Below are positions 5,121 through 28,303 of a stretch of DNA of 64,000 nucleotides, piece by piece. Where the stretch lies: NCBI GenBank assembly GCA_038209415.1, contig JBBQXT010000001.1, forward strand, positions 7,844-71,843, in the 5' to 3' direction. The position numbers were made by a program, and so were the translations under genes. Origin of the DNA: Geobacterales bacterium (lineage in GTDB: Bacteria > Desulfobacterota > Desulfuromonadia > Geobacterales > Pseudopelobacteraceae). The notes under the pieces are model-generated. The model was given only the letters and a program-made list of their open reading frames with translations, did no database searches and was not told the DNA's origin. The first letter of the stretch is position 1, and each line of letters starts with the position of its first letter.

Positions 5121-5169
5121 CCTTTTACAGGCACCAGGACATCGTTAACAGCATGGAAGCCTCTGCCCA

Positions 5170-6474: not shown

Positions 6475-6620
6475 GACTTCCCCCGCTCGCCCCTGGCATC
6501 CTGATCAAACGCTACAAACGCTTCCTCGCTGATGTTGCCCCCGCCTATCGCGCTACGGTAACGCCCGAAGAATTCAGGCTGACGGAACGTCTGCACATAG
6601 TTGTATAAACTTTCAACTTT
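6471..6620 (+). pseudogene. Remnant of an sfsA-like gene (N-terminal about 25 codons, then a degenerate or frameshifted tail)
   Basis: Translation from 6471 reads [23 protein letters not shown], matching the characteristic SfsA N-terminus (E. coli PPLQRATLIQRYKRFLADV). The frame then diverges and stops at 6606-6608. A shifted frame gives ADGTSAHSC, reminiscent of the next SfsA block (DG...HCPN). A full SfsA is about 235 aa. Confidence 0.5.
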
Positions 6621-7589
6621 ATGAATCCACAAAAGAAACGGAGAATGGATATGCCACCCAAGCAACTGAGAATCGGCACACGTGCCAGCCAGCTGGCCCT
6701 CTGGCAGGCCAACTGGGTCAAGTCGGAGCTGGAGAAGAGATATCCCGGCATGGAGGTCTCCCTGACCAAGATCAAGACCATCGGCGACAAGATCCTGGAT
6801 GTTCCGCTGGCCCAGGTGGGCGGCAAGGGGCTGTTTGTCAAGGAGATCGAAGAGGCCATGCTGCGGGACGAGATCGATATCGCTGTACACAGCATGAAGG
6901 ATGTGCCAACCGACTTTCCTGAAGGTCTGGGTCTGCACTGCATCACTGAGCGGGAAGACCCCCGTGATGCCCTCATCTCTCGAAATGTCAAATTTGCCGA
7001 CCTGCCCCAGGGAGCGCGTATCGGCACCTCGGCGCTGCGTCGGCAGGCCCAGCTGCTCAAGCTGCGGCCAGACCTGCAGATGGTCATCATCCGCGGAAAT
7101 GTGGAAACCCGCATCCGTAAACTGGAAGACGACAAACTGGATGCCGTCATCCTGGCTGCCGCCGGTCTGAAACGGCTCGGTTTTACCGATAAAGTGGCCG
7201 AGTATCTGGATACAGAGCTGTCCATCCCGGCCATCGGCCAGGGAGCACTTGGCATCGAATGCCGTCTGGCCGACCCGATTATTACCAAAACGATAGCCTT
7301 CTTCAATCACCCTGAGACGGCTTATGCGGTCCGCGCCGAACGTGCCTTGCTCAAGCGCTGTGAAGGCGGCTGTCAGGTTCCGATTGCGGCTTACGGCACC
7401 ATCTCCGGCGGGCAACTGAAGCTGGTCGGTTTCATCGCGGCGGTTGACGGCAGCCGTTCCGTGCGCGGTGAACTCAGCGGGCCAATGACAGAATGTGTAA
7501 ATATCGGTATTCAGCTTGCGGACCAGTTACTGGCCGCTGGCGGCAAGGTCATCCTTGAAGAAGTCTATCAACGGGAAATCAGTGTCTAG
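6621..7589 (+). CDS. hemC: Hydroxymethylbilane synthase (porphobilinogen deaminase)
   Basis: RIGTRASQLALWQA N-terminal motif; about 310-322 aa. The true start may be the ATG at 6651, 7 nt after GGAGA. Confidence 0.9.
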   Translation: MNPQKKRRMDMPPKQLRIGTRASQLALWQANWVKSELEKRYPGMEVSLTKIKTIGDKILDVPLAQVGGKGLFVKEIEEAMLRDEIDIAVHSMKDVPTDFPEGLGLHCITEREDPRDALISRNVKFADLPQGARIGTSALRRQAQLLKLRPDLQMVIIRGNVETRIRKLEDDKLDAVILAAAGLKRLGFTDKVAEYLDTELSIPAIGQGALGIECRLADPIITKTIAFFNHPETAYAVRAERALLKRCEGGCQVPIAAYGTISGGQLKLVGFIAAVDGSRSVRGELSGPMTECVNIGIQLADQLLAAGGKVILEEVYQREISV

Positions 7590-9111
7590 CGGCATCATAT
7601 ACCTGGTAGGGGCCGGCCCCGGAGACCCTGGGCTGATAACCCTGCGTGGTGTTGAGTGCCTGCGGCAGGCACAGGTGGTTGTGTATGACTATCTTGCCAA
7701 TGAGCAACTGCTCAACCATGCACCTGAGGATGCAGAGCGGATTTATGCCGGAAAGATCGGCGGCCGCCACAACCAGGACCAGGAAGAGATCAACAAGCTC
7801 TTGGTTGAAAAGGGCAGGCAAGGTAAGGTCGTTGTCCGCCTTAAAGGTGGAGACCCCTTTGTTTTCGGGCGGGGAGGCGAAGAATGTGAAGCGCTTGCTT
7901 TAGCAGGCTTGCCCTTCGAGGTCGTACCCGGTGTCACAGCTGCGGTGGGTGCCGCTGCGTATGCCGGCATACCCCTGACTCACCGTGATTTTACTGCGTC
8001 CGTTGCCTTTGTTACCGGCCAGGAGGGCAAGGATAAGAACGAATCCAACATCGACTGGGATCGTCTGTCTTTGGGAAACGGCACCGTTGTTTTTTACATG
8101 GGCATCACCTCTCTTCGCCGCAACATGCTGCGCATGGCAGAACATGGCAGAAGCCCTCACACACCGGTGGCTCTCGTGCGGTGGGCCACTACCACCGGTC
8201 AGCAGGTACTGACCGGCACACTGGCTGACATTGCCGACAAGGCGGAAAACGCTGCTTTCAAGCCCCCTGCGATCACCATTGTCGGAGAAGTCGTCAACCT
8301 TCGTGGACAGCTGCGCTGGTTCGACAACCGCCCCCTCTCAGGCCGCAAAATCATTGTCACCCGTGCCGCTGATCAAGCCAGCGAATTTTCCGCTCAGCTG
8401 ACCAGCCTCGGCGCAGAAGTTTTTGAGTGCCCCACAATCAAACTGGTTGAACCGTTGAGCTGGGACGAGCTGGACATTGCCATTGCCAAGCTGGCCGACT
8501 TTGACTGGCTTGTGCTGACATCAGTCAACGCAGTGCGTTTCTTTTTTCAACGGCTTGATCTTATTGGTTTGGACGCCAGAGCGCTCGGTGGCTGCAAGGT
8601 ATGCGCGGTGGGACCGAGAACTGCCGAAGCACTCGTGCTGCATGGCATTCGGCCCGACTTGATACCGGCCGACTATAAGGCGGAAGGTGTGGTTTCAGGG
8701 TTTGCCAAGCTGGGTATTGCTGGGAAAAAAGTACTTTTCCCCCGTGCAGACCGCGCACGAGAGGTCATTCCGCACGATCTGGAACAGATGGGCGCCTTCG
8801 TAACCGCTCCGGTTACCTACCGCAACATCCTTCCCGAACGGCTTTGTCCTGAAGCGCTTCTGGCGCTGGAAAAACGCTGCATAGATTGCATCACCTTTAC
8901 CTCTTCCTCAACCGTACTCAACTTGGCTGAACTGCTTGGCGCAGACCTGCTGGCAGACATGCTGCAAGGCGTCGCAGTCGCTTCCATCGGTCCGATCACC
9001 TCCAGAACGTGCCGGGGTCTCGGCTTAAAAGTTGATATTGAACCCAAAGAATATACCCTCTCTGCACTGACTGCCGCCATTCAACAGCACTTTCTCAATC
9101 CCGGGCGATAA
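7582..9111 (+). CDS. cobA: Fused uroporphyrinogen-III C-methyltransferase / uroporphyrinogen-III synthase (CobA-HemD)
   Basis: N-terminal VGAGPGDPGLITLRG SUMT motif, followed by a C-terminal half of about 250 aa with HemD-like organisation. The GTG at 7582 overlaps the hemC stop. The ORF-track start at 7516 lies inside hemC. Confidence 0.85.
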   Translation: MSSGIIYLVGAGPGDPGLITLRGVECLRQAQVVVYDYLANEQLLNHAPEDAERIYAGKIGGRHNQDQEEINKLLVEKGRQGKVVVRLKGGDPFVFGRGGEECEALALAGLPFEVVPGVTAAVGAAAYAGIPLTHRDFTASVAFVTGQEGKDKNESNIDWDRLSLGNGTVVFYMGITSLRRNMLRMAEHGRSPHTPVALVRWATTTGQQVLTGTLADIADKAENAAFKPPAITIVGEVVNLRGQLRWFDNRPLSGRKIIVTRAADQASEFSAQLTSLGAEVFECPTIKLVEPLSWDELDIAIAKLADFDWLVLTSVNAVRFFFQRLDLIGLDARALGGCKVCAVGPRTAEALVLHGIRPDLIPADYKAEGVVSGFAKLGIAGKKVLFPRADRAREVIPHDLEQMGAFVTAPVTYRNILPERLCPEALLALEKRCIDCITFTSSSTVLNLAELLGADLLADMLQGVAVASIGPITSRTCRGLGLKVDIEPKEYTLSALTAAIQQHFLNPGR

Positions 9112-9243
9112 CTCTCTCCATCCAAATTTTATTTAGATTGCGTTATACAGTTCGAGGGTCTTCTCTGTCTGCAAGCGACTAATTAAAATAAGATTTAATA
9201 GATAGCGCTGTTATTGTCAAGAAGGCATCAGTCCGCACAACGT

Positions 9244-9279
9244 AAAAAAGCCTGACAGTATTAGCTGTCAGGCTTTTTC
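9244..9279. terminator. Bidirectional rho-independent terminator between convergent genes
   Basis: Stem GCCTGACAG (9250-9258) / CTGTCAGGC (9265-9273), flanked by an A-run on one side and a T-run on the other. Confidence 0.6.
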
Positions 9280-9313
9280 TTACCTATTAACTCAAGTCAT
9301 TTAATTCTATTAA

Positions 9314-12300
9314 CTACCATTTAGGCGTTTTCTGGAAATGGCAGGCAATATTGGAACAATTACCTGACACGTGCAGAGCACCATCCAGACCATTTGATGT
9401 GTATTTAGCAGGCCTATCTACCGAGAATTTATACTCATGGTCTATATTGACCTTGATATTGCTGCTCGGATTGAAAGCCAATGGACTCATTGCATGATCA
9501 TTTTGATTATGACAGTTCGTACAGTTGGCCCATGCCTGGCTTGGATTCGCTGTAGGAGGAATGTGGCCGGCAACGGTATGTGCCCCACCGCCGCCTGAGT
9601 AATTCTCCTGACGCGCACTCGACCAGTTGTTCTGCGTGCCCTTGAAGCGCTTGTTGGACGGCGGATACCCATGGCATCCGTTACAACTACCACCGGTAGA
9701 ATTAACTACCCCATTAATGTGTAGCGTTTTGTCCACGAAAATATTGGCATAGGTTGTACCAGTTGCACTTATATTCGGATGACATCCGCTGCAATCTGAC
9801 GTTGGAAAACTTGTTGGAGACGCGAGAACAGGATGGTTGGCATTTACCGGCGGGAAGCCGTGACATGATTTACATGACTCTGGAGTCAATGTAGCAGGCA
9901 TGAACGGTGTTTTCCATGACGGAGTTTTATTGTTTCCACTTGTGTCTGAACCAGGCATAGCAGCTCCATGGCAGTAGACATTAGAACATGTTCCAGTAGA
10001 TGTGTTGTAGCTAGGAGTGAGTCCACCCGTCTTAGCGAGTACGCTCCAGTTGAAGTTGGAGACACCGTTCATATGAGTCGCGTCTTTCAGTGCTACTGTT
10101 CCGTGGCAATCTGTGCAGACCAGTGATGCGTTCATTACATTTATATTCGTGAGATGCAATGTATGAGCGCCAACCTTAGCATTTAGATTTGAGGTCTGTT
10201 TTGTCGGGTACTCCGTTGAGTAGAACGGGTTCCCAGCTGATACAGCGGCAGCGGCGGTGCTGCTGTGGCAGGTTGTACAGTGATCACCACCGGTCTGCCA
10301 GATGGTCCCATTATTCCAGATCAGGCCGGTTGCACTGCCATGACATTTGCTCGTTGAACAGGTGCCCCAGGCGCCGCCGGCCGGCATCGGAGACACTTTC
10401 GAGTATCCGGTCACAGCGCCGTTCAGCTCAACCAACTTGTTCGCGTGTGTCGTGCCATTGGTTGACGTCGCAGTGTAGCCGGTGTGACAGGCAGAGCAGT
10501 CAAATGCCGGACCTGATGTATTGCCAGTGCTGGAATGCTTGAAGTGACCGCCATTCGCAGCAGGAGTAGTAGCCATATTTGCATGACAACTGCCGCAGTT
10601 GAGAGATGCACCGCCCCAGGTCATGGTTGTATAAGCTATGGCTGCACCGTTAGGCCCGCCGTTGCTGTGGCAATAGATATTCGAACAGGTTCCATACGCA
10701 GCACTCGGTGCCAGGCGGCCTGTTGAACCACTGATGGTGTAGAAACGACCGCTCGGTGTTTTGTACTGACCACCGTTCAGCGCAGCGAAATTCCACTTTA
10801 CATTGCCATTCACGTGCTTGTTGTCTGTATGTAGACCATGGCAATTGGCACAAGCAATCTGCAACTGACCGACGCCTGCGCCGGCATGACGCGCATGGCT
10901 GGCAGTTGTGGGCGGTGTCGAAGCTGATGCGCCATGGCACGTTCCGCAAGCGACCTGACTTATACCGCCAACCCATGAGGGGCTTAAATTTGAACCACCG
11001 GTCAGGGTGGAGCCATGGCAATAGATTGCACTACAGGTCTGATTTGGACCAGCCCCGACAGGACCGGTGAAGGTATAGCCGTTTGAAAGCGGATTGTTAT
11101 TATTATAGGTACCGGAGATCGGTACATTAGTGAAACCAGGGACGTTTACACCGTTGACGGCAAAACCGATATCAATAGTCTTACTCGGCATAACCCTGTT
11201 TGCATAGCCTTCATGGCAGCCGTTACACTCCATCTTCAGGCCGCTAGTCACGTGCGCAGCATGTGCACCGACCGCACCAGCGAGGAGAGCGCCCGTGGCA
11301 GGTAATGCCAAACCGCCTGGTCCGGGTGTCGCACTGTTTGGAGGCATTCCATGGCACTGTCCGCACGAGCCGGAAAACGATCCGGCCTGGCTTGAGTGGA
11401 AGTGGCAATTTTTACAGTCGCTGGCTTTGTTACTGTCGTGCTCTGGGGGATATTTACCGCCCGCTTCGGGTACCTTGTGACAACCCTGACAGACACCGGT
11501 ACCCTGAGCGTTTTTATATTCTCTCTGGCTGCCGGTGTAACGGAAGTATATCTTACTGGGCGTTCCATGGTTATTAACGTTACGACGAACCAGGTATACG
11601 TTGGTTAAATTCTGAGGGTTCAACACCGGTGAATTGGTAGCATCGTACTCAACATGGGCGCCATGGCAATCCACACACTGTACATCCTGATCCTTGGCGT
11701 TATGGCTCTTTTTATTGGCATGACAGTTTGTACAGATGTTGAGTTTATCAGGAGTTCCACTGGATACTTTTGAACCGCGACGGTCAGTGCGTAGCTGATA
11801 GCCGTCACCGGAGCTTAAATTGACATAGTTGCCTCTGCCTTTTGCCGTCGAAGAACCATCGAACGTTGAACTGCGTGAATCGGTATAATGTACACCATGG
11901 CAGGTTGAACAAATAATAGTACGGTCAGGGACAGGGACTGAAGGAGCCAGTGGAATTGCTTGAGTAAAGCCCCCTTTTGTAAACCTCTTACTCAGGTCAG
12001 AGGTCGGGTTGGCTGGGTTGGCATTTAACGGTGGGTTATTAAAGTTGCCTTTGGCTGCAGCAGTATCGTAATTAACCCCAATCGGGTGAGTGCCGGACAG
12101 GTGCGACTGCTGATCACGAGTACGGTGACAGTCGCGGCACAGCTGGTCATTCTCGACACCCATACGAAGCATGGCGCCGGGGGCTCCAGACAGATGTGGC
12201 GAGTGACAGCGGACACATGCCAATTGATTGCCTGTACGGCCGCGCAGGTTGAGAACACCATTTGTGTTGGTCGTCATGGCCGCTTGTACAGGTGCCAATG

Positions 12301-12688
12301 CACCGGCGGCAGGGTTTGTGTCGGAGCCATCCCAGCGATGTGAAGTCTGGCGTAACTTGCCGAAACCTGCCGTCGAATGATCACCAAAAATGGACGACGT
12401 ATCAACCAGTGCCATGGGCTTGGCTTTCGCAAAACCATCACCTGGTCTATGGCATGTTTGGCAGATATTGTTAAAAACAGCTGGTGAGGTTCTTATGATA
12501 GGAACCGTTTTATCGGGCAAAAGCTGACTATTACTGGGGCCAAGTGTGCGGTGCGGCTGGTGGCACGAAGCACAGTTTATACCGATAGCCAAACCGAAAT
12601 GGCTGGGAGGGTCTACTGCCTCCGCAGTTAACGGCAGGATAATGGCAAAGAGCGCTAAAGCCCAGATAACGACACATGTTCTCTTCAT
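9314..12688 (-). CDS. Secreted giant multihaem c-type cytochrome (21 CXXCH plus 5 CXXXXCH sites)
   Basis: Signal peptide ending LTAEA-VD. I counted 21 CXXCH motifs and 5 CX4CH motifs (CSAIYCH, CSNIYCH, CSTSKCH, CSNVYCH, CSNIACH). These are arranged as repeated CX4CH...CXXCH modules like the Geobacter CxxxxCH...CXXCH paralogous domain (TIGR01904, from memory). Confidence 0.9.
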   Translation of the reverse strand: MKRTCVVIWALALFAIILPLTAEAVDPPSHFGLAIGINCASCHQPHRTLGPSNSQLLPDKTVPIIRTSPAVFNNICQTCHRPGDGFAKAKPMALVDTSSIFGDHSTAGFGKLRQTSHRWDGSDTNPAAGALAPVQAAMTTNTNGVLNLRGRTGNQLACVRCHSPHLSGAPGAMLRMGVENDQLCRDCHRTRDQQSHLSGTHPIGVNYDTAAAKGNFNNPPLNANPANPTSDLSKRFTKGGFTQAIPLAPSVPVPDRTIICSTCHGVHYTDSRSSTFDGSSTAKGRGNYVNLSSGDGYQLRTDRRGSKVSSGTPDKLNICTNCHANKKSHNAKDQDVQCVDCHGAHVEYDATNSPVLNPQNLTNVYLVRRNVNNHGTPSKIYFRYTGSQREYKNAQGTGVCQGCHKVPEAGGKYPPEHDSNKASDCKNCHFHSSQAGSFSGSCGQCHGMPPNSATPGPGGLALPATGALLAGAVGAHAAHVTSGLKMECNGCHEGYANRVMPSKTIDIGFAVNGVNVPGFTNVPISGTYNNNNPLSNGYTFTGPVGAGPNQTCSAIYCHGSTLTGGSNLSPSWVGGISQVACGTCHGASASTPPTTASHARHAGAGVGQLQIACANCHGLHTDNKHVNGNVKWNFAALNGGQYKTPSGRFYTISGSTGRLAPSAAYGTCSNIYCHSNGGPNGAAIAYTTMTWGGASLNCGSCHANMATTPAANGGHFKHSSTGNTSGPAFDCSACHTGYTATSTNGTTHANKLVELNGAVTGYSKVSPMPAGGAWGTCSTSKCHGSATGLIWNNGTIWQTGGDHCTTCHSSTAAAAVSAGNPFYSTEYPTKQTSNLNAKVGAHTLHLTNINVMNASLVCTDCHGTVALKDATHMNGVSNFNWSVLAKTGGLTPSYNTSTGTCSNVYCHGAAMPGSDTSGNNKTPSWKTPFMPATLTPESCKSCHGFPPVNANHPVLASPTSFPTSDCSGCHPNISATGTTYANIFVDKTLHINGVVNSTGGSCNGCHGYPPSNKRFKGTQNNWSSARQENYSGGGGAHTVAGHIPPTANPSQAWANCTNCHNQNDHAMSPLAFNPSSNIKVNIDHEYKFSVDRPAKYTSNGLDGALHVSGNCSNIACHFQKTPKW

Positions 12689-12772
12689 AAAAGCTCCTTA
12701 ACTACGCTGGAAACTCTTTTAACTTGATATAGTTGATAAAAGTCTCTTTAACCATGCATCACAACGGTGCAG

Positions 12773-12802
12773 GATGCTACAGCAAACATCTGCTGCAGCA
12801 TC
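12773..12802 (-). terminator. Intercistronic stem-loop between the NHL-repeat gene and the giant cytochrome gene (attenuator or RNA-stability element; no U-run)
   Basis: GATGCTACAGCA (12773-12784) pairs with TGCTGCAGCATC (12791-12802), 11 of 12 positions. It lies 13 nt beyond the NHL gene stop. Confidence 0.3.
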
Positions 12803-12814
12803 AGTGTATGGATC

Positions 12815-14668
12815 TTATTTCACCTTGAACTGCTTCATGACGACCTTGCCACTATTCAGGTTGGTCCTTCCGACAACGACACTCGATGCACCCGAATTAC
12901 TGGTGAATGTTCCGTCGTAACCGCCCTCGATAGTGACTGATTTCGCCTGCCATGCGGTGTTGTATTCTGTCGTCGAATTTGTTGACGGCCATGTACCGGC
13001 AAGCACCTTGATCACTGAGCCATCGGAAGCAGCATTATAGGCAGACTGCAGATTGTCGAAGTAGACCCCATCTACGCGGAATGCAAGTTTTGCTGAGAAG
13101 AAGGCAGTTACTAATTTGGCTGAATCCATTGTTACTATACAGGTTTCAGCGGTGGTAAAACAATCACCAGTCCATCCTTCAAACACCGATTGACCTGAAG
13201 CCGTTGCAGTCAATGTAATCAGAGCATCTGAATTCTGTGATGATACACAGGTTCCGCTCGGGCAGGCGGCACTACCATTTACGGAACCATTACCATTTAA
13301 GTTAATTGAAAGGTTGAACAGACCCGTTGTTTTAGCAGAAACCTGGCTGATGTTGGTGGTCTCTGTATTTGAACCGTAGACTGCCCGTACCGTGTAATAG
13401 TAGGTCGTATACTGCAATAACGCCGTGTCAGTATACGAAACCGCCGTACTGGGCAGAATCCCGCTGACATTGGTACCCAGGGCTCCGGCTGTAGTGGATC
13501 TGTAAATACGTATACCAGTAATTGATGCACTGGCAGAATTCAACCAGTTCACGCGCAATGTCGTATTTTGTACGTTGTCTATCGTGACATTAAACGGCTG
13601 CAGATTGGCGAGACCGAAAACCGTCAACGAACCAAAACCGTTAGATACAAACAGGTGGCTGTTGTTCGGATTTACGGAATCGACCAATAAATCGGAGGGA
13701 GCTATCAAATCACCATTATCATGGCCATACAGACTTATATCCTCGAGCCATGTCCACGCAGGCGCGGCAGTTGTTGCATCAAGCACCATAACGTAACTCT
13801 GAAACGTATCCAGTATGTAGGCGCGGTCCAGTACTCCGGTAGCAGTATATTCAAAGTCTACAGATTGCGGATAGGTAAACCTGATGAATTGGTGGTTTAC
13901 GTCGTAACCTTGTGAACCTATTGTAGCGAGGTAATTTCCAGCCTGGTCAAAAAACTTGAGTTTGCCGCTCAGTGAATCTACAACGACCAGATTCCCGGAG
14001 TTTTTCTCGATGGCCACGCCGGCCGGGCGGTTGAAGGTTGTGTTTTTGACTCCCCAGATATTCTGGTTATCACCGATGAAATTGGCCCGGTAATCTCTGT
14101 ACCACTTGGCATTGCCGGGTATGTCCTGTGCATTGTGAGCAGTGCCGGCGCTGACATCCACGTCAGCGTAGGCATTATCAAAGACCTGAACAACATAGTC
14201 TTTAATATCACTTACAAAGATCTTGCCCGAGGCCGCACGGACAGGATTCGTGCTATCTGTCCTGTCAACCGTAATATAAAATGCTGACAGAAACGACCCG
14301 AAACGCCTCTTTTCCGCACCCGTGGCAGGGTCTAGCGCGACAACATATGTTCCCTGCGTAACAAGCAAATCACCGTTTTTCGCAAAGGCGATGCCACCCG
14401 GTTCAACGGCTGTAACAAATTTATTCACCAGTTTCCCGACACCGTTATACACGTTAATTCCTTCGGCATGCGGGTCCGTCACGTAGATATTGCCAAGGCC
14501 ATCTTCAGCAAGCCTGGTCGGCGTGACAGCCCCTTCCTTGAAAACCGGAAGCACGGTAACAATCGGCGGGGTAGAAGCACCGAAAGCTACACCGCCAAAT
14601 AGCGACCCAATACAGCAAAAGGACGTCGCCAAGCTAACGATACATATGAACTTGTTCCAATGTTTCAT
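12815..14668 (-). CDS. Secreted NHL-repeat beta-propeller protein with a fibronectin type III domain and an InlB B-repeat-like domain
   Basis: Signal peptide, then repeated NHL-like blades (GNIYVTDPHAEGINVYN, GKIFVSDIKDYVVQVFD, GNLVVVDSLSGKLKFFD and others). An FN3-like segment follows (LRVNW...YRS...YYYTVRAVY), then FNLSINLNGNGSV...LTATA...FEGWTGDC...VTAFF, typical of divergent InlB B-repeats. ATG at 14668, 10 nt after GGAGG. Confidence 0.8.
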   Translation of the reverse strand: MKHWNKFICIVSLATSFCCIGSLFGGVAFGASTPPIVTVLPVFKEGAVTPTRLAEDGLGNIYVTDPHAEGINVYNGVGKLVNKFVTAVEPGGIAFAKNGDLLVTQGTYVVALDPATGAEKRRFGSFLSAFYITVDRTDSTNPVRAASGKIFVSDIKDYVVQVFDNAYADVDVSAGTAHNAQDIPGNAKWYRDYRANFIGDNQNIWGVKNTTFNRPAGVAIEKNSGNLVVVDSLSGKLKFFDQAGNYLATIGSQGYDVNHQFIRFTYPQSVDFEYTATGVLDRAYILDTFQSYVMVLDATTAAPAWTWLEDISLYGHDNGDLIAPSDLLVDSVNPNNSHLFVSNGFGSLTVFGLANLQPFNVTIDNVQNTTLRVNWLNSASASITGIRIYRSTTAGALGTNVSGILPSTAVSYTDTALLQYTTYYYTVRAVYGSNTETTNISQVSAKTTGLFNLSINLNGNGSVNGSAACPSGTCVSSQNSDALITLTATASGQSVFEGWTGDCFTTAETCIVTMDSAKLVTAFFSAKLAFRVDGVYFDNLQSAYNAASDGSVIKVLAGTWPSTNSTTEYNTAWQAKSVTIEGGYDGTFTSNSGASSVVVGRTNLNSGKVVMKQFKVK

Positions 14669-14867
14669 ATACAATTGCCTCCAGACAAAAACGGATTGCC
14701 ATGTGTTTCCGATGAAATCCGATAACGTTACTACCTCTGACAGACCTTGACCAAGCTACTCGCAGGTAACGTAATCCTTGCGTTTTCATTTGAGTGAGAA
14801 TGAAAGATGCAATTTTATGGCCACTTTTAGAATCACTTACGATATTTCTTTCCACAGTACGACCGAA

Positions 14868-16706
14868 TCATTTGTACCAAGATCTGGAAGGAAGCGAATT
14901 ATGGCAACCTCTCCCCGAAGGGGATGTGCTGGCAGTAATAAAACATGAACTGCTTTGTGAGCTCGTGAATGTATAGGTTGCCACAGCCGTGCCTGGCCCG
15001 CCTACCGTGCTCGCGGCAAAAGCGCCTGGAAGCAGGGGGCGCCTGCCAAGCAAGATATTTTGGTAGTGCTTCCCGTTGGATATGTTGTGACAATCCGTGC
15101 ATAAGATATTATTGCCAACAACATGAAACAAGTGCAGATTCTGGCCAGTCAGTGGGTATGTAACAGGGTCACTATTATTTCCGCTAAATGGTCCGATGTA
15201 AGGCACGCCACTGTATAGGGCTGGCTCAACTTGCGAGACAACGTGGCAGTTAGTTGCGCAATCGGTTGCGATAAGTGACCCGGTTTTTTTCCAATCCATA
15301 TTTGGTATCGAGAGAAACGCGTCACCGCCAATAGAACCTCCATGGCAGCTTACGTTGGTACATTTCTGAGTGGAAGTATTATAGGCGGCCGGACCGCCAT
15401 CATTGAACTGAGCCGGACCGGTTTGCAGAATGGCCACCGGAGCTGTGACAGCAGCGAATACGACCCTTGCGGAGTGGCTAACTTTACCAGTTCCAAAACC
15501 GTTATGGCAGATGCCGCACGTAAGACCGGTGATCGCATTGAAATGCTTCGAGTGCCTGAAATCACGATTTGGTGCCGTGCTGCCGATCGGCTGACCGCTT
15601 GATGGGATTAATGGGGTCGGCGCAGCACCGTGGCACGAACTGCAACCAACCGTTATACCTTGAGCGTTAATCGGTTTGGTGAAATGGCAGGCTGTGGCGC
15701 CAACCGCCGCTCCCGGGGTTGAGAAGCAGGCCGGCGGTGCAATTCCACCCGGGTAAGCAGTTCCGCCACCCGTGAGTGCTGCCCCACCGTGACACAGGCC
15801 ACATGACGCAACCACGTTCTGGGCGTTGGCGTGGCTGGCTGTGTTCGTCGCTTCAAGCGTTCTTGGCCGACCCGGCAGCCACATAAAGGGATGAGCCAGA
15901 CCAGGTTTGGCATGACACTTTTCACATCCACCAGGTGTAAGGGTAGCGTTCTTCTCAATGGTAAATCTAGGATTGGAGCCTGCTGAAGGCGTTGCATGAC
16001 AGGTTTGGCAGCTGGCAAGATTGGATCGCGCAGAGACCATATGATCTACGACAGTAAACGCATGACCGGCTGCATTGTGGCACAGAGTCCCGTTGAAACA
16101 CTGCGGAGCAGTTCCGGCTGCGGCAGGGACAGGTGCTGGATGTGAAAAACTCCCGCCAAGATGGCACTGGGCACAGGCCGGGGCATTGCTGGGATCGGTT
16201 GTGCTGTGCTTGAGGCCGTTGGCATTCCCGCTAACCCAGTTGGCGGCATGCGGTGCATTCGAAGCCGGATTTGTCTGTTGGTGGCAGCCGATACAATTTG
16301 GAGCTGCGCCATTGCCGGTGTAGATGGTGCCATGACACTTCTGGCAGTGTGCCATGCCGGTAACTCCTAATGCCTGAGCTTTAGCGGAATTTCCGTGCAG
16401 GGCAAAAGCTTTAAATCCGAGCACATGCGGAAAGCTGGAGTGGCAAAGGACACCGCTCCTGCCCGGATTTGAGCAACTGACCTGGCTGATGCCGCCCTTC
16501 AGGTCCGTGCCGTGGCACTCTTTGCAACCATTCGGGTTGCTGAAATATACATCGGGATGCGCTCCACCGCTACCGTTGGCGGCCCATCCGGCGACATGCT
16601 TGCCGGTGGTCGGGTCAATCGCGGCCGGGGCAGCTGAATTGCCCGAACTGCAGCCCCACAGTGTCACAGAAAAGAGTAGTACAAGAGCATAGTATAATAT
16701 CTTCAT
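14868..16706 (-). CDS. Outer-membrane-type lipoprotein multihaem c-type cytochrome (10 CXXCH plus atypical sites)
   Basis: Lipobox LWGC-SS. It has 10 canonical CXXCH motifs, CTNVSCH (CX4CH), CATNCH (CX3CH), and four long-spaced C-Xn-CH segments. A GGAGA ribosome-binding site precedes it, and it starts 9 nt after the upstream gene. Confidence 0.9.
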   Translation of the reverse strand: MKILYYALVLLFSVTLWGCSSGNSAAPAAIDPTTGKHVAGWAANGSGGAHPDVYFSNPNGCKECHGTDLKGGISQVSCSNPGRSGVLCHSSFPHVLGFKAFALHGNSAKAQALGVTGMAHCQKCHGTIYTGNGAAPNCIGCHQQTNPASNAPHAANWVSGNANGLKHSTTDPSNAPACAQCHLGGSFSHPAPVPAAAGTAPQCFNGTLCHNAAGHAFTVVDHMVSARSNLASCQTCHATPSAGSNPRFTIEKNATLTPGGCEKCHAKPGLAHPFMWLPGRPRTLEATNTASHANAQNVVASCGLCHGGAALTGGGTAYPGGIAPPACFSTPGAAVGATACHFTKPINAQGITVGCSSCHGAAPTPLIPSSGQPIGSTAPNRDFRHSKHFNAITGLTCGICHNGFGTGKVSHSARVVFAAVTAPVAILQTGPAQFNDGGPAAYNTSTQKCTNVSCHGGSIGGDAFLSIPNMDWKKTGSLIATDCATNCHVVSQVEPALYSGVPYIGPFSGNNSDPVTYPLTGQNLHLFHVVGNNILCTDCHNISNGKHYQNILLGRRPLLPGAFAASTVGGPGTAVATYTFTSSQSSSCFITASTSPSGRGCHNSLPSRSWYK

Positions 16707-16715
16707 TTTCTTCTC

Positions 16716-17192
16716 CTATCGGTGGCAGGTGATGCAGCGTTCGTTATTGGCACGGCCATGACAGCGGTAGCAGCTGGCCGGGTCGAGCTTGCCTTCGATC
16801 TTGTGCATGGTCATGAAGTTGCCGCGGTGCGGCATTTCACGGTCGGGACGGTTGCCGTACTTTAACGAGGGTTTCATTTCTACTTGATTTGTGTGGCAGT
16901 CGTTGCAGAAAGAGCTCTTGTGGCAGGTTGAACAAAGCCTCTCATCTGAAGATGCGTAGAAACGATGGTTTTTGACAAAGCCCGGTGAATGGCTGAATGC
17001 GTCAAAGGCCTTCAAGGTGCCTTTTTGCTGGTCCTCGTGACATTCGGCACAACTGACCTGCTGACCAGCAGCCAAAGTTTCAGAATGGGAGGCGGGCAGA
17101 CCGGGAATGGCCTTCATCTGGGCACATGCCGCAAGTATCATGATCAGTCCGGCCAGGGCCAGTGCGGGGAATATCTGCTGGAAAAATCTCAT
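16716..17192 (-). CDS. Small pentahaem c-type cytochrome (periplasmic or lipid-anchored)
   Basis: 158 aa with 5 CXXCH motifs (CAECH, CSTCH, CNDCH, CYRCH, CITCH). The signal sequence has a lipobox-like LAAC. An ATGA overlap links it to the upstream barrel gene. Confidence 0.85.
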   Translation of the reverse strand: MRFFQQIFPALALAGLIMILAACAQMKAIPGLPASHSETLAAGQQVSCAECHEDQQKGTLKAFDAFSHSPGFVKNHRFYASSDERLCSTCHKSSFCNDCHTNQVEMKPSLKYGNRPDREMPHRGNFMTMHKIEGKLDPASCYRCHGRANNERCITCHR

Positions 17193-18526
17193 TTCATCCC
17201 TCCTTTGCTATCAAAATTCATATTGTAGGTCAGGCGGACGAGGCCTCTTGTCTCTTCGGTGAACTGGGGATTCCTGCCGTAGCTGATATCACCAGAAGCT
17301 GCCAGGTCAGGAGTGATATGGTAACCCAGGGAGAGGGTCCCTTCCCAGGCGGCCTGCTCATTATAAACCTTTTCTTTAAAGATGTAGCCGATCGCATCCA
17401 GCGCGGCAAAATAGGTCTTGGTATCATGCATGACATAGCCGCGCAGCTGATGGAAAGAGGCGCTTGGGGTACCAACAATGGCAAATTGCTGGTCGGCACG
17501 CAGATAGTGGTAGCCAAGGCCGCTTCGAACAGAGTTTTCCATGAAGGAAAGCTTCAGGTCAGCGCCATAGCGGTCGGCATTGCCCATGTCACGGGTGTAG
17601 CGTTTGTAGTCAGCTGCAATTTCGACTCCCTTGCCGATTCCGTAAGAAGCACTGCCGCCCAGGGAGCGTGATCGTTCGGCAGGATTCAGAGCCGTTTCGG
17701 AGAACCTGAGCCCTGTGTACAGGTAATTCAGTTGCCGTTGTTCATTGTATTCACCGGTCAATACCAGGTGCTGCAGCGGCTTAATATTCATCAGGTAGCT
17801 GTGCTCCGCCACTCCCTTGGTTTCCGTGTTGTAGCTGGTGTGCCCCATGAGTTCGACAGCCTTGTGCGGGCTGAACCAGATATCACCACCCACCAGCCGG
17901 TGATTGTGTTTGGTTGGCGGATTCAGGGGGTTTAGGAGATCAATCATAGCGGGGGCATCGGTTTCATACTGCCCGGAAGCACCGAGCTCCAGTACCCCTT
18001 TGTAGCGGTAGTTCAAGCGACCGCCGAAGTTGCCATCGCCTTTGCCGTCACTGTTTTGTCCCTTCAGATTTATGGTGTGCACATTTGCGCCGCCGAAGGC
18101 GGAAAAACCAAAACCGAGCGGCAGGTCGGTACGGAGACCGGCACCGTCGATCTGTTCGTTTACAATACCCTCGTGCACGAAGAATCGTCCGGCCCGCATA
18201 TCAGCGTTGGCGACCTTGAAACGGTACTGCAGGTATCCGTAGGTCAGGCTGCCGGCCAGTTGATCGTCGTTATAGCTCTTGTCCTCGATATCAGCGCGCC
18301 CCCAGCCGTAAACGTGCAGGGAGAGGTTTCCGTCAGCCAGCTTGTTTGCATCCAGCCCCAAAAACTGTGTGGCCGGGGCAATATTCTGCTTGTTAAAACC
18401 AGGATCGGCGCGCTGTTCAATGCGCACGATACTGGTGGCATCAACAGATATTTCCGCAGATAACGCAGCCCCCGGAAGGGCCAGAAGGAAGCAGGCGGGG
18501 ATCAGGCGGGTGCATGATAATTTCAT
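17189..18526 (-). CDS. Outer-membrane beta-barrel (porin-like) protein
   Basis: The internal ATG at 18526 gives the signal peptide MKLSCTRLIPACFLLALPGAALSA. The mature part shows alternating hydrophobic/polar strand-like segments rich in Y/G/N/D, with a terminal strand LVRLTYNMNF near the C-terminus. No haem or cofactor motifs. Confidence 0.65.
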   Translation of the reverse strand: MKLSCTRLIPACFLLALPGAALSAEISVDATSIVRIEQRADPGFNKQNIAPATQFLGLDANKLADGNLSLHVYGWGRADIEDKSYNDDQLAGSLTYGYLQYRFKVANADMRAGRFFVHEGIVNEQIDGAGLRTDLPLGFGFSAFGGANVHTINLKGQNSDGKGDGNFGGRLNYRYKGVLELGASGQYETDAPAMIDLLNPLNPPTKHNHRLVGGDIWFSPHKAVELMGHTSYNTETKGVAEHSYLMNIKPLQHLVLTGEYNEQRQLNYLYTGLRFSETALNPAERSRSLGGSASYGIGKGVEIAADYKRYTRDMGNADRYGADLKLSFMENSVRSGLGYHYLRADQQFAIVGTPSASFHQLRGYVMHDTKTYFAALDAIGYIFKEKVYNEQAAWEGTLSLGYHITPDLAASGDISYGRNPQFTEETRGLVRLTYNMNFDSKGGMK

Positions 18527-18787
18527 GAAGGCGCTCCTGTTGTTGTAGTGAGAAAACGCTGCAAATATATGTTGTAATGATATAAACAAAACCCCTGAAT
18601 AATGCAATAGGAATTGTTTACATTATTCACCGCGTTACACGCGCCAGCGGGATAGGCAGCACTCTTCCGCAGCACTTGGCGAGGCAGACACAGCAGGTCG
18701 TCATGGAAATTGCTTCCATGCCATAGATGGGCTACACTTTAGCAATTAAGTCTGGAAATCCCCTTATATATTCAAATCAGGTCAAGC

Positions 18788-20554
18788 TTGCAGACTCACT
18801 TCCGTGAAGGGATATACACCATCAAAGACCTAACACTCCTGAATAGTTACCTGTATACGCTTCGTTGGCGTTACGCAGCAGGCGGCTGTTTTCTGCTTGC
18901 AACCAACGGTTTTGCACTGTTGATACCCTGGTTTATGAAACTTGCTGTGGAAGGGCTACAACATCCCGCTTCGGCCCGTTTTTCTCCGGCAACCTGCGCC
19001 CTGGTCATCGCCTTACTGGCCTTGCTGCACTGCGTGACCAGGATTTTTTCCCGCACCCTGATTCTTAACGCCGCCCGCATCATCGAGTTCCGCATCCGGA
19101 CCGACCTTTTTCGCCGTCTGATGCTGCTCGACCAGCATTACTTCTCAACCAGCCGCACCGGCGACATCCTTTCCCGTTTTTCAAACGACCTGACCAATGT
19201 CCGTATGCTGACCGGCTTTGGTGCCATGAGCGCCATGAATACGCTGATCATCTATACGGCTGCGGTATCCCTGATGCTGCGCATTCACCCCTGGCTGACG
19301 ATATGGGCGATTCTGCCCTTTCCGCTGATGGTGCTGGTTGTCAAGAAGGTCAGCCATAGACTGTTTCAGCGGTCACTGGAGGCGCAGGAAGAGCTGGCCC
19401 GGCTGTCAAGCCTGTCCGAGGAAACGATCTCGGCGGTACGACTGATCAAGTCTTATTGCCGTGAGGAACATTTCCAGGGGCAATTCGGGCAGACCGCTGG
19501 CCGCTATCTGCATCACAACCTGCGTCTGGCCAGACTGCGCGGACTGATCATCCCGGTTATGGCTGCTGCGACAGGGGCCGGAACGCTGGTGGTACTGTTC
19601 ATGGGTGGGCGGCTTGTGATTGACGGCAGCATCACCCTGGGCGATTTCGTGGCCTTCAGCGGTTATCTGGCCATGTTGGTCTGGCCCACGGCGGTGATGG
19701 GCTGGATTCTGACTCTGGCGCAGCGCGGAGCGGCCTCCATGTCTCGCCTGGCTACGATTCTTGCGGCCGAACCGGGTGTGGCCGATGAAAAAGGGGCAGA
19801 GCCGCTTGATGAAATCCGCGAAGGGATCGAATTTCGTAGGCTTTCTTTCAGTTATGGATCCACACGGATATTGGACGGGATCTCGTTTCGAATAAAGGTC
19901 GGAGAAAAAGTAGGCATCACCGGCACTGTGGGCAGCGGAAAAACCACCCTGATCAAATTAATGCCGCGTTTGTTGCCGGTTGCACAGGATATGCTCTTCA
20001 TCGACGGACGGGACATCAACGGCATCACCCTGGCCAGCCTGCGGCGACTGGTCGGCTACATCCCCCAGGAGGCGTTTCTTTTTTCCCGCAGCATCCGCGA
20101 GAATATTGCCTATGGCCTGGCGGATCATGACGAGAATACTATTAGCGAGGCCGCTCGCCAGGCAGGTTTTAGCGACGATGTCGAGAAGTTCCGTGAAGGG
20201 CTGGATACAATGGTGGGAGAAAAAGGAGTCACACTGTCCGGCGGCCAGAAGCAACGCCTGGCCATTGCACGTGCCCTGGCCACCGATCCGCCGCTGCTGC
20301 TGCTTGACGACCCGCTCTCCGCAGTGGATGCCGGCCGTGAGGAGGAGATTTTGGCTGAACTGGGACACTTTTACGCTAACCGGACCGTGCTGATCGTTTC
20401 CCAACGTGTTTCCGCATTCCGCGATTGCGACCGGGTCATCGTGCTGGAAAACGGGAGAATTGCGGAGGAGGGGCCACCCGCTGAGCTGCTGGAGCGCGGG
20501 GGACTGTATGCCGAGATGAGCCTCCGCCAGCGCTTGCAGGAAGAGCTGGGCTAG
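18788..20554 (+). CDS. ABC exporter, fused permease/ATPase (MsbA/MdlB-like)
   Basis: N-terminal six-helix transmembrane domain, Walker A GTVGSGKTT, signature LSGGQKQRLAIARAL, Walker B LLLLDD. Confidence 0.85.
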   Translation: MQTHFREGIYTIKDLTLLNSYLYTLRWRYAAGGCFLLATNGFALLIPWFMKLAVEGLQHPASARFSPATCALVIALLALLHCVTRIFSRTLILNAARIIEFRIRTDLFRRLMLLDQHYFSTSRTGDILSRFSNDLTNVRMLTGFGAMSAMNTLIIYTAAVSLMLRIHPWLTIWAILPFPLMVLVVKKVSHRLFQRSLEAQEELARLSSLSEETISAVRLIKSYCREEHFQGQFGQTAGRYLHHNLRLARLRGLIIPVMAAATGAGTLVVLFMGGRLVIDGSITLGDFVAFSGYLAMLVWPTAVMGWILTLAQRGAASMSRLATILAAEPGVADEKGAEPLDEIREGIEFRRLSFSYGSTRILDGISFRIKVGEKVGITGTVGSGKTTLIKLMPRLLPVAQDMLFIDGRDINGITLASLRRLVGYIPQEAFLFSRSIRENIAYGLADHDENTISEAARQAGFSDDVEKFREGLDTMVGEKGVTLSGGQKQRLAIARALATDPPLLLLDDPLSAVDAGREEEILAELGHFYANRTVLIVSQRVSAFRDCDRVIVLENGRIAEEGPPAELLERGGLYAEMSLRQRLQEELG

Positions 20555-20625: not shown

Positions 20626-21900
20626 TTAAAACGGATACCCCAAACCTACAAACACCGCCGGGCCGTCTTTGCCGAAGCCGACATCGACTCTCCCGATAAT
20701 ATTTGGCCGGACCACAGCCCGGACACCAATACCGGGATTGAACTCGAACTGCCTGGTGCTTGACCGGTCGAGCCGCTCCATGACAGCCCCCAGGTCTATG
20801 AAAGGCGCCAGTTCCCAGTCGGCCTTGACGTTGAAAATCTCCCAGCGGAAAAGCCGGATGCGCTCTTCGAGGTTCAGCAGAAAATAGCTGTTATCGATAA
20901 AGCGGTTGCGACCGTATCCTCGCAAGGTGTTTTCGCCTCCCAGGCTACTCTGCTCCAGAAAAGGGACTTTTTCACCGAGGGTCTGGTTGTAGACCAGGCG
21001 AAAGACGCTGATGTAGCGGGCGTTGTCAAGGGGAATGAAACCCTTGAGTTCGCCTTCGTAGTGCCGGTAATCGGCGGAGCTGCCCAAATCCTTCGAGCTG
21101 TTTTCAATTGAGACCTTGGCAAACCCGCCGAAGGTCGGCGCAGTCAGGGAATCCAGCGTACTGTAGACCAGTGAGATGCGCTGGGCATGAGCGTCAAAAC
21201 CGTTGATTCCCGGAACATTTCTTCCCCTGAAGCGCTTGCGAATGAATGGAATGCTTGTAACAGCTCCCGGTTCGATTTCAACGTCGCGGTAACGCTCACC
21301 CAGAATAAATTGAATGTGCCGGCCGATATCATAGCCGGCTGAAAGATTGAAGCCGATTTCCTTATCGGTGTAATTGGTCTCACGCTGGCGGGGTGTTTTG
21401 GCATCGAATCCGAAAAAACGCGCTGAGCCGTCACTGAAAGCAAAGGCGAACAGGTTGATTTCCAGTTTCTTGTCGAGGAAGTTCTTGTCGCGCAGCTTGA
21501 GCTCGTAATCCTCGTTGATGATGGTCGATTTGGAAAGATTTATTTCCCAGGAGCGGTCCGGCGAGGGGTAGAAGGCTCCGTAGAACGTTGAAGTGATGCC
21601 GAAGTTTTTGTTGTAGTTGACCTGCGGCGCCAGCAGTGTGCTGATATTGTCATTACTGTCATGTAGCAGAAAGGCCGACAGGGCACCGACTGTTATACCC
21701 TCGTTGGGACTGGAAGCAATTACCGGCAGGGGGATGGTGACAACCTTGACCTGCCTGTCGAAGGTATCATTGGTCAACGGGTACGGCAGACGGTCATGCG
21801 CTATATAGCTTGTGCAGCCCGTCAGTAAAAGGAGCAGCAGCGGAGCCAGATAACGGGGATATGCGGCGAGATACGAAATCATAGCAGAAGTATGTAGCAT
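20626..21900 (-). CDS. Omp85/BamA-TamA family outer-membrane protein (surface antigen D15 barrel domain)
   Basis: The C-terminal barrel signature ends ...GVRAVVRPNIIGRVDVGFGKDGPAVFVGLGYPF. The N-terminal hydrophobic leader carries LLTGC. Start assigned to the ATG at 21900; 21882 or 21942 are also possible. Confidence 0.7.
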   Translation of the reverse strand: MLHTSAMISYLAAYPRYLAPLLLLLLTGCTSYIAHDRLPYPLTNDTFDRQVKVVTIPLPVIASSPNEGITVGALSAFLLHDSNDNISTLLAPQVNYNKNFGITSTFYGAFYPSPDRSWEINLSKSTIINEDYELKLRDKNFLDKKLEINLFAFAFSDGSARFFGFDAKTPRQRETNYTDKEIGFNLSAGYDIGRHIQFILGERYRDVEIEPGAVTSIPFIRKRFRGRNVPGINGFDAHAQRISLVYSTLDSLTAPTFGGFAKVSIENSSKDLGSSADYRHYEGELKGFIPLDNARYISVFRLVYNQTLGEKVPFLEQSSLGGENTLRGYGRNRFIDNSYFLLNLEERIRLFRWEIFNVKADWELAPFIDLGAVMERLDRSSTRQFEFNPGIGVRAVVRPNIIGRVDVGFGKDGPAVFVGLGYPF

Positions 21901-21951
21901 TGTGCCGCCAGGGGTGTCAACTGCCCTGTATCCACAGCGCATCCTTAGCGC

Positions 21952-21980
21952 TTGTCTCTGCCTTCACCCTGCGCTATAAT
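21952..21980 (+). promoter_or_regulatory. Sigma-70-like promoter for the histidine kinase / NtrC-type regulator operon
   Basis: TTGTCT (21952-21957), a 17-nt spacer, then TATAAT (21975-21980), about 29 nt upstream of the ATG at 22009. Confidence 0.45.
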
Positions 21981-22008
21981 CCAGCCACTTTTTCGAACAA
22001 AGGCCGCC

Positions 22009-28007: not shown

Positions 28008-28303
28008 TGAACTTCTCCTTGAATACGGTATGATGTATTGCACTGCTGAATTTCAGTTTTTAATCTTTATCTATTTAGCTTTCATCAGCATGATTTGTCA
28101 AAGTTTTTTTGCCAGGTTCCGCATGTCGCAGATCGTTTCGAGCAGTTTTGCCCGTCTACACGATCCAGCAGGAAACATTTCTTGACAAGTACAGTCAAGA
28201 CCTTTATTTTTAAACATCGTTATACATTTGGCAGGCCATGTTCAGGATGCATCAATACTGGGGTGAGCTCCTCTTGCCCAACTCTACCAAGGAGGTGCGT
28301 ACA

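Follow-up and report, generated by a model that had tools for sequence, protein, structure and literature searches.

We analyzed a 64-kb stretch of DNA from a Geobacterales bacterium (contig JBBQXT010000001.1; the whole stretch is called the window here, and coordinates count from its first letter), in which five co-oriented minus-strand genes at 9314 to 18526 encode an outer membrane β-barrel, two lipoprotein cytochromes, an NHL-propeller protein, and a giant multiheme cytochrome. The cluster is a conserved and uncharacterized juxtaposition of two known kinds of modules, not a new kind of conduit. On balance, we consider it somewhat probable that the region comprises two adjacent Geobacter-type modules with separate promoters: module A, an Ext/Oet-type conduit made up of the barrel, a pentaheme lipoprotein, and a 12-site lipoprotein cytochrome, and module B, an obligate pair formed by the NHL protein and the 26-heme cytochrome. 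An earlier note on this DNA had proposed instead that all five genes form one operon for an extended conduit. The gene coordinates, motifs, and terminator that it gave were all reproduced from the open reading frame (ORF) list, the translations, and folding, and good ribosome-binding sites precede all five genes.

The division of the cluster into two modules is seen in related loci. A scan of species-representative genomes with two strict barrel peptide patterns returned at least 61 loci (given L numbers here) among the matches listed; the cultured carriers among them are Pelotalea chapellei, Oryzomonas japonica, and three Geomonas species, and the others are metagenome-assembled genomes (MAGs). 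Identities were obtained by tblastn of the five cluster proteins against all loci, and the nearest barrel homolog among them is 78% identical, which places the window in a Geobacteraceae lineage without cultured members. Co-occurrence of module B was scored in the 42 genome loci that extend at least 9 kb past the barrel. The NHL gene and the giant cytochrome gene are found together in 21 of them and are both missing from the other 21, and no locus has one without the other. The Pelotalea locus (L002/L013), which was excluded from the 42 as a duplicate, also lacks both. A metagenome scan anchored on the giant cytochrome gave 38 non-redundant loci that extend at least 7.5 kb upstream of it, and in 35 of these an NHL gene lies no more than 6 kb upstream of the giant; barrel and pentaheme genes accompany 14 of these 35 pairs, and the other 21 have neither. 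The NHL protein and the giant cytochrome are an obligate pair that is able to exist without the conduit. As the core occurs without the pair in half of the genome loci and the pair occurs without such a conduit in 21 of the 35 NHL-containing metagenome loci, the view of the earlier note that the last two genes are integral parts of the conduit is not supported.

The five-gene arrangement is nevertheless not a product of chance, because the same block is found again in at least 21 other genomes or MAGs of the Geobacteraceae and in several genomic contexts. It is present in 21 of the 42 genome loci and in 14 of the 38 metagenome loci, and at least three kinds of genomic context are represented. 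A complete 4.2-Mb metagenome-derived chromosome (L001/L018) carries the five genes in this order as well. Even in L057, whose barrel is of a divergent lineage (42% identical), an NHL gene and a giant cytochrome gene come next. This recurrence, together with the shared orientation of the genes and the lack of an intrinsic terminator before the one at 9244 to 9279, speaks for the alternative of one operon and one extended conduit, in which the propeller would be an adaptor docking the 26-heme chain on the barrel complex. We regard that alternative as unlikely, since the NHL gene has a conserved sigma-54 element in front of it, the core lacks the pair in half of the loci, the pair lacks the core but has its own regulators in 21 loci, and the same core is found with other accessories, either ResB/CcsA or CarboxypepD_reg repeats plus an 887-amino-acid (aa) cytochrome.

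Conserved elements between and in front of the genes divide the cluster in the same way. A sigma-54-type −24/−12 element, TGGCCATAAAATTGCA (14808 to 14823, minus strand), with GG-N10-GC spacing lies 139 nucleotides (nt) upstream of the NHL start. In L003, L004, L007, L060, L066, and L079 (L001 has the variant CGGC..TTGCA) the pattern TGGC-N7-TTGCA lies 110 to 160 nt ahead of the NHL gene, and in the conduit-free loci L095, L101, L118, L123, L134, L137, and L141 this distance is 76 to 89 nt; the sequence flanking the element is not conserved. Within the 64-kb window the pattern occurs twice, against 1.0 occurrence expected, and because this count is near chance, the case for a sigma-54 promoter lies in the positional conservation and not in the match itself. 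The only other match in the window is TGGCAAGGTGTTTGCA at 42478 to 42493 on the minus strand. The gap that holds the element, between the 12-heme and NHL genes, measures 199 nt from the ATG at 14668; the earlier value of 193 nt holds only if translation starts at the TTG at 14674, and the 126 nt reported between the NHL gene and the giant cytochrome gene was correct.

Module A has a putative promoter of a different type. A sigma-70-like block at 18579 to 18607 (minus strand) combines a −35 hexamer, TTGCAT (18602 to 18607), a 17-nt spacer, and a −10 hexamer, TATATC (18579 to 18584). It corresponds to a TTATTGC-N17-19-TTATA block about 55 to 75 nt upstream of the barrel start that is kept in 12 loci, some of them with unrelated upstream genes, and that is followed by a conserved 5′ untranslated region and AGGAG. 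This block is predicted from sequence to drive module A. A candidate sigma-54 promoter upstream of the barrel (TGGCGC-N-ACGC, 18632 to 18646) was rejected, as it is not conserved in orthologs. Given the conserved sigma-54 element and the separate conserved sigma-70-like promoter, two transcription units are predicted rather than the single five-gene operon of the earlier note. The first would run from the sigma-70-like promoter through the barrel, pentaheme, and 12-heme genes; the second would run from the sigma-54 promoter through the NHL gene and the giant cytochrome gene to the terminator.

That terminator, at 9244 to 9279, is bidirectional and intrinsic, has the form AAAAAGCCUGACAG-CUAAUA-CUGUCAGGCUUUUUU, and is shared with a convergent heme-biosynthesis operon. 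Its perfect 9-bp G+C-rich stem is flanked by an A-run and a T-run (ΔG of −22.9 kcal/mol; z score, −5.6). A hairpin with a 13-bp stem directly follows the NHL stop codon (12773 to 12802, minus strand); it has no T-run and is not a canonical terminator, and the 66-nt fragment that contains it has a minimum free energy of −23.9 kcal/mol and a z score of −2.0. The number of sites from a simple promoter and terminator pattern scan did not exceed chance, and the terminator at 9244 to 9279 was not among them.

The likely regulators of module B are encoded nearby. A histidine kinase with sCache_3_2, HAMP, HisKA, and HATPase domains by Pfam (21952 to 23439, plus strand) is followed by a sigma-54-dependent response regulator, also identified by its Pfam domains (23439 to 24833, plus strand), and the pair stands beside the cluster at 86 to 93% identity in L001, L004, and L007. 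Several conduit-free loci consist of an NHL gene (about 900 to 1,300 aa), a 4-heme cytochrome gene (about 280 to 300 aa), and a 27-site cytochrome gene, and immediately in front of these trios stand genes for a histidine kinase and a sigma-54-dependent response regulator whose architecture is that of the window pair. The kinase and sigma-54 activator at 21952 to 24833 therefore probably control module B. The kinases of the conduit-free modules (L137, 3294 to 4796, and its equivalents in L118, L125, and L141) contain one CXXCH motif, which is missing from the window kinase and possibly makes them heme-based redox sensors.

The first gene of module A encodes an outer membrane β-barrel of 445 aa with a type I signal peptide (17189 to 18526, minus strand), starting from an ATG preceded by AGGAG. 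A longer, TTG-start ORF was rejected because it would extend into the promoter region and disagrees with the homologs, which have 438 to 447 aa. An AlphaFold2 (AF2) model with a predicted local distance difference test (pLDDT) score of 72 has about 22 strands; this strand count, a check named beforehand, is well above the 16 strands that had been set as the lower bound for a barrel able to enclose a cytochrome. All named members among the 563 barrel homologs belong to the Geobacteraceae or Desulfuromonadales, and identities across the loci are mostly 53 to 78%, with L057 at 42%.

Could the barrel be an ordinary solute porin that merely lies beside cytochrome genes? No Pfam or NCBIfam family matched it above cutoff, and its only match, to OMP_b-brl, was below threshold; one source labels a homolog an "OprD family" porin, and general porins are among the Foldseek matches. 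We nevertheless consider a solute porin very improbable. The best Foldseek matches of the model are the 24-strand FimD/PapC usher barrels (query TM score [TMq] of about 0.5), which are translocation barrels, and about 22 strands exceed the 16 to 18 of solute porins. Moreover, the barrel stop codon overlaps the start of the pentaheme gene as ATGA, which indicates translational coupling, and the adjacency of the two genes is invariant: in the 57 of the 61 loci that have sequence past the barrel, the pentaheme gene lies directly 3′ of the barrel in every case. The reading of the first three genes as a porin-cytochrome blueprint, made in the earlier note, is upheld by the size of the barrel and by this pentaheme lipoprotein directly downstream in 57 related loci.

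The pentaheme lipoprotein cytochrome (16716 to 17192, minus strand) has 158 aa, five CXXCH motifs, and the lipobox LAAC. It is the most conserved part of module A, above the barrel, and the third gene is the least conserved; near-full-length homologs (at least 84% coverage) are 65 to 93% identical, with one outlier, L057, at 48%. Five histidines outside the CXXCH motifs (H36, H68, H76, H122, and H130) are invariant, which fits five bis-His hemes. The family is broad, with 341 clusters among cluster representatives; its small members have 145 to 165 aa, are 30 to 57% identical to one another, and mostly carry a lipobox. Proteins of about 350 aa whose C-terminal half resembles the pentaheme protein were considered as MtrA/DmsE family members and rejected as such.

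Nine nucleotides separate the pentaheme gene from the third gene (14868 to 16706, minus strand), which encodes a 612-aa lipoprotein cytochrome with the lipobox LWGC. Its 10 CXXCH motifs, one CX3CH motif (residue 483), and one CX4CH motif (residue 449) make 12 candidate sites, consistent with the "at least 10" hemes counted earlier. Across the loci this protein is only 26 to 47% identical by tblastn. Even in truly orthologous loci with common flanks it reaches only 47% (L003) and 32% (L007), compared with 64 to 92% for the other four proteins, and elsewhere the third position is occupied by cytochromes with 7 to 26 candidate sites, most of them with a lipobox. The barrel and the pentaheme protein are thus an invariant core, and the third gene is hypervariable.

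This organization closely resembles that of the Ext conduits. ExtB/C/D consists of a barrel, a 5-heme lipoprotein, and a 12-heme lipoprotein, and ExtE/F/G consists of a barrel with 21 predicted transmembrane strands, a 5-heme lipoprotein, and a 12-heme cytochrome, ExtG, that is periplasmic (PMC6148476); ExtC and ExtF are paralogs with 49% identity. These clusters belong to Geobacter sulfurreducens, where ExtBCD is accompanied by ExtA, the barrels are GSU2644 and GSU2726, and the pentaheme proteins are GSU2643 and GSU2725; in G. metallireducens they go by the name PccH, and in syntrophic sulfate reducers such conduits are known as Oet-type. Module A likewise encodes a barrel, a small pentaheme lipoprotein, and a cytochrome with about 12 hemes in the same order. 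As in Ext/Oet systems, a large barrel (18 to 21 predicted strands there) stands beside multiheme cytochrome genes, and the size class is alike (21 predicted strands in ExtE versus about 22 here); a small lipoprotein of the ExtC/ExtF type with five hemes lies next to the barrel; and a dodecaheme partner follows, whose lipobox points to ExtD-like anchoring. Jimenez Otero et al. reported that ext clusters keep their inner components and that the surface lipoprotein is replaced non-orthologously (PMC6148476), and a conserved inner pair with an often replaced outer lipoprotein is common to both systems. Downstream of extEFG lie YedY and Hox hydrogenase genes, which are not present at this cluster; their presence in the alternative loci was considered and rejected, as those loci carry ResB/CcsA instead.

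The barrel-pattern genome scan gave no G. sulfurreducens locus among the matches listed. No protein of G. sulfurreducens or G. metallireducens came up in homolog searches with one pentaheme representative and with a 16-member profile, built from 15 representatives and one sequence taken from a locus. Thirty of the 341 pentaheme clusters, looked up by exact sequence, had no cultured-organism or Ext names, and NCBIfam holds no model for ExtB, ExtC, ExtE, or ExtF. A published table gives no ExtE homolog above 40% identity in the Geomonas-type genomes that it covers (Geobacter bemidjiensis group), yet other Geomonas species do carry this barrel type; for this reason we suggest that the barrel lineage is probably a distinct paralog. 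Positional orthology to Gbem_3373 (near omcB) by way of the Geomonas loci was rejected, as no omcB-type cluster lies near L030, L054, or L064.

Other characterized conduits were compared as well. MtrCAB of Shewanella follows the same design principle, a barrel around a heme wire with a surface lipoprotein cytochrome, but its barrel has 26 strands compared with about 22 here, and MtrA is a soluble decaheme protein in contrast to the lipidated 5-heme protein proposed here as the wire. The combination of an MtrB-family barrel of 26 to 28 strands and an MtrA/DmsE-family decaheme cytochrome was not found, in that the barrel had no match in the PDB and the pentaheme profile had no significant match to MtrA; the DmsE-family model TIGR03508 matched only the giant cytochrome, with 50.8 bits against a cutoff of 192. 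In the OmaB/OmbB/OmcB systems the gene for a periplasmic octaheme cytochrome of the OmaB type stands between those for the barrel and the lipoprotein cytochrome, whereas here a 5-heme lipoprotein gene comes after the barrel.

The first protein of module B, the NHL protein (12815 to 14668, minus strand), has 617 aa and a signal peptide, is exported, and contains no heme. Pfam places NHL (E value, 6.5e-07), fn3 (2.5e-06), and Flg_new_2 (InlB B-repeat; 8.1e-07) domains on it, in agreement with the domains named in the earlier note. Its layout is a six-bladed propeller at residues 45 to 343 or thereabouts, in which six blade motifs are readable, an FN3 domain (357 to 436), an InlB-type B-repeat (453 to 527), and a short C-terminal domain. 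It is the sole cluster protein with PDB matches, and by sequence these are only to the TRIM71/Brat NHL propellers.

The giant cytochrome (9314 to 12688, minus strand) has 1,124 aa and a type I signal peptide and lacks a lipobox. The 26 candidate heme sites claimed for it were recounted as 21 CXXCH and 5 CX4CH motifs. TIGR01904, the family expected from the earlier note, matches in four stretches (E value, 5.3e-42), and PF09698 also matches; the C-terminal half is made of TIGR01904 three-heme units and contains the five CX4CH sites. Homologs are 29 to 74% identical, have 22 to 34 candidate sites among those counted, and are never lipoproteins. Neither the giant nor the 12-heme protein has a sequence or profile match in the PDB. 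In the conduit-free modules of L077, L080, and L083 (at about 9160 to 9930) a lipoprotein of 175 to 179 aa is encoded between the NHL gene and the giant, and a Pfam scan of the L080 copy found nothing.

One of the closest published counterparts of module B is found in G. metallireducens, where Gmet_0556 (an NHL protein), Gmet_0557 (4 hemes), and Gmet_0558 (27 hemes, 67% identical to OmcO) are encoded together (PMC10989804; 10.1101/2022.05.06.490989). Both the reduction of Fe(III) oxide and interspecies electron transfer to G. sulfurreducens reportedly depend on Gmet_0557 and Gmet_0558, and an important part in extracellular iron reduction is reported for Gmet_0556. Here, too, the NHL gene lies directly upstream of a TIGR01904-type cytochrome of that size (26 sites, compared with about 27 hemes). 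Relative to the window proteins, the giants of metagenome loci with the Gmet layout are 30 to 32% identical over their full length and the NHL proteins 30 to 36% identical over the propeller, and these loci share the sigma-54 element and the regulator types with module B. The differences are that no membrane-associated 4-heme partner of the Gmet_0557 type is encoded between the two genes here (tblastn found no match anywhere in the window), that the NHL protein here is shorter and has FN3 and B-repeat domains instead of the Glucodextranase_B and Big domains of the same-layout loci, and that the pair is docked behind a conduit.

Module B is also reminiscent of other systems in which propellers accompany multiheme cytochromes. 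For SEEP-SRB1, "Ca. Desulfofervidus," Geobacter, and Anaeromyxobacter, Skennerton et al. (2017) described a conserved operon core made up of a six-bladed propeller, a 26-heme cytochrome, a 16-heme cytochrome, and a peptidyl-prolyl isomerase (PMC5539420). A six-bladed propeller and a 26-site cytochrome with Sec signals and no anchor are present here as well, a likeness by architecture, and the cluster contains no 16-heme cytochrome and no isomerase. A similar architectural likeness links the cluster to the DFE_0448-0465 island of D. ferrophilus, with its propeller, large cytochromes, and smaller cytochromes nearby that include a pentaheme lipoprotein (PMC8322314). NHL propellers beside multiheme cytochromes are further known from omcS/GSU2505 (PMC9070056), D. 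ferrophilus (PMC8322314), Uet (10.1101/2022.05.06.490989), and Dethiobacter. At the omcS locus of G. sulfurreducens the gene for the NHL protein GSU2505 likewise neighbors that of an extracellular cytochrome, and help in the assembly or expression of OmcS has been suggested as the role of GSU2505 (PMC9070056); OscH of the osc operon has been proposed to act in OmcS folding (PMC13194489). OmcS itself, however, is a 6-heme filament-forming cytochrome, and the giant here is a 26-heme TIGR01904 protein. As published systems (ExtBCD/ExtEFG, Gmet_0556-0558, SEEP-SRB1/Geobacter, D. ferrophilus, Uet, and omcS/GSU2505) already join such parts, the earlier suggestion of an unprecedented composition is not supported.

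Where the products of module B reside is a separate matter. The NHL protein and the giant cytochrome, like all of their homologs that were checked, have type I signal peptides and neither lipobox nor transmembrane helix. Such Sec signals are compatible with the periplasm, and in one alternative module B would be periplasmic: the 26-heme protein would be the missing ExtA/OmaB analog or a periplasm-spanning wire fed by inner membrane quinol oxidases, and the propeller would be a periplasmic chaperone. In keeping with this, the cluster encodes no periplasmic multiheme cytochrome, Skennerton et al. predicted a periplasmic place for the homologous core proteins, and ImcH-like and Cbc-like inner membrane complexes are encoded nearby (26460 to 30839). 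We judge this arrangement to be rather improbable, for several reasons. Charged residues make up only 8 to 14% of the 12-heme (8%), NHL, and giant proteins compared with 21 to 24% of the barrel and pentaheme proteins, and Ser, Thr, Asn, Gly, and Gln together make up 38.5 to 42.4% of the former three; module B thus shares its low-charge, Ser/Thr/Asn/Gly-rich composition with the 12-heme lipoprotein and not with the pentaheme protein. FN3, B-repeat, Big, or Glucodextranase_B domains are present in the homologous propeller proteins, the propellers and large cytochromes of D. ferrophilus were detected in the extracellular fraction, and the literature counts Gmet_0558/OmcO among the outer surface cytochromes. 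We therefore favor a location of module B at the outer surface or outside the cell on the basis of composition, domain types, and the likeness to D. ferrophilus.

Several observations weigh against the two-module reading and are gathered here. The assignment of module A to the Ext/Oet type and of module B to the Gmet_0556-0558/OmcO type is made by architecture and literature only. The barrel sequence and profile have no match in the PDB, the pentaheme profile has only non-significant PDB matches (best E value, 0.018), and the AF2 model of the pentaheme protein (pLDDT, 50) is unusable, so that the wire-in-barrel arrangement has no structural support. The cluster encodes no periplasmic cytochrome of the ExtA/OetA/OmaB type, as Ext systems would lead one to expect; extBCD loci whose extA gene lies at a different genomic site are on record. 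The sigma-70-like hexamers match at only 3/6 and 4/6 positions, which makes them weak, and there is no intrinsic terminator between the 12-heme and NHL genes, so that cotranscription of modules A and B by read-through is possible. With Sec signals only, the NHL protein and the giant may be placed in the periplasm. Finally, Skennerton et al. noted that the Geobacter homologs of the propeller/26-heme operon were not expressed during metal respiration.

With two modules as the preferred reading, we propose the following scheme, in which the protein topologies, their contacts, the direction of electron flow, and the acting regulator are predicted. The pentaheme lipoprotein inside the barrel of about 22 strands would be the membrane-spanning heme wire across the outer membrane, and the fast-evolving 12-heme lipoprotein would be a surface-exposed hand-off cytochrome. 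TonB-dependent receptors with 22 strands enclose a plug of about 150 residues, and the mature pentaheme protein, with about 135 residues, could by this comparison fit the barrel. Module B would be switched on separately via sigma-54; its propeller protein, without a redox function of its own, may serve as a scaffold or chaperone in the folding, export, or positioning of the long cytochrome, and the 26-heme cytochrome would carry electrons tens of nanometers beyond, or up to, the conduit. A more daring form of the same idea, which we offer as a speculation with the odds against it, is that a sigma-54-switched extension was recruited to an Ext-type conduit in one Geobacteraceae lineage and that the NHL/FN3 protein docks or assembles the 26-heme cytochrome on the surface lipoprotein, giving with the 5-heme and 12-heme proteins a continuous chain of about 43 hemes from the periplasm to tens of nanometers outside the cell. 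If this were true, such a switchable chain would be a modular alternative to cytochrome filaments.

The cluster reveals no new principle of electron transfer. What the analysis adds is the separation of an invariant core from exchangeable outer parts, the obligate pairing of the NHL protein with the giant cytochrome, the positionally conserved sigma-54 element that splits the supposed operon, and the recurring kinase and activator neighbors. It also makes two questions testable, namely, which component of an Ext-type conduit passes through the membrane and what role is played by NHL propellers beside multiheme cytochromes, a long loose end in Geobacter, Desulfovibrio, Tenderia, and the partners of methane-oxidizing archaea. 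Clusters of this type are widespread among uncultured freshwater Geobacteraceae and the cultured genera Geomonas, Oryzomonas, and Pelotalea, and may therefore matter for freshwater iron cycling.

Other genes in the window may be related to the cluster in function. An ImcH-like inner membrane multiheme cytochrome with a NapC/NirT N-terminal region, c3 domains, and six CXXCH motifs is encoded at 26460 to 28043 (minus strand), and divergent from it is a Cbc-like set consisting of a 4-heme cytochrome (28238 to 28801), a 4Fe-4S protein (28798 to 29583), and an NrfD membrane subunit (29586 to 30839); the two sets could be quinol oxidoreductases feeding the periplasm. A 631-aa cytochrome with nine CXXCH motifs, a signal peptide, a Cytochrom_c3_2 match, and an MtrC/F-like domain (32930 to 34825, minus strand) might be a periplasmic partner. 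The convergent operon at 3727 to 9111 (plus strand) encodes heme biosynthesis and cytochrome assembly functions (siroheme-synthase-like, CcsA-like, hemA, hemC, and a cobA/hemD fusion), and this flank is kept only in L003, L004, and L007. Between the cluster and the kinase/regulator pair lie an ATP-binding cassette (ABC) exporter gene (18788 to 20554, plus strand) and a gene for an Omp85-family protein (20626 to 21942, minus strand), a block that L001, L004, and L007 retain together with the cluster and that L003 and L066 retain in part.

Some of the other loci combine the core with different neighbors. In L030 the three-gene core is followed, in place of the NHL gene and the giant, by a pair identified by Pfam as ResB-like and CcsA-like (cytochrome c maturation system II; 15241 to 17387), and L020 and L033 have ORFs sized like that pair. 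L064 (Geomonas silvestris, BLXX01000009, 4242 to 16778) has a second, divergent core of barrel, pentaheme protein, and 625-aa cytochrome, with genes for an FN3 protein and a 706-aa cytochrome ahead of it, and it is followed by a 520-aa CarboxypepD_reg-repeat protein and the 887-aa cytochrome; it presents another accessory pair of a non-heme β-rich protein and a large cytochrome. L050 (about 11440 to 19000) is a tandem arrangement, in which the first set is followed by a 453-aa ORF likened to the barrel by size, a second pentaheme gene (50% identical), a second cytochrome gene, and an NHL protein gene.

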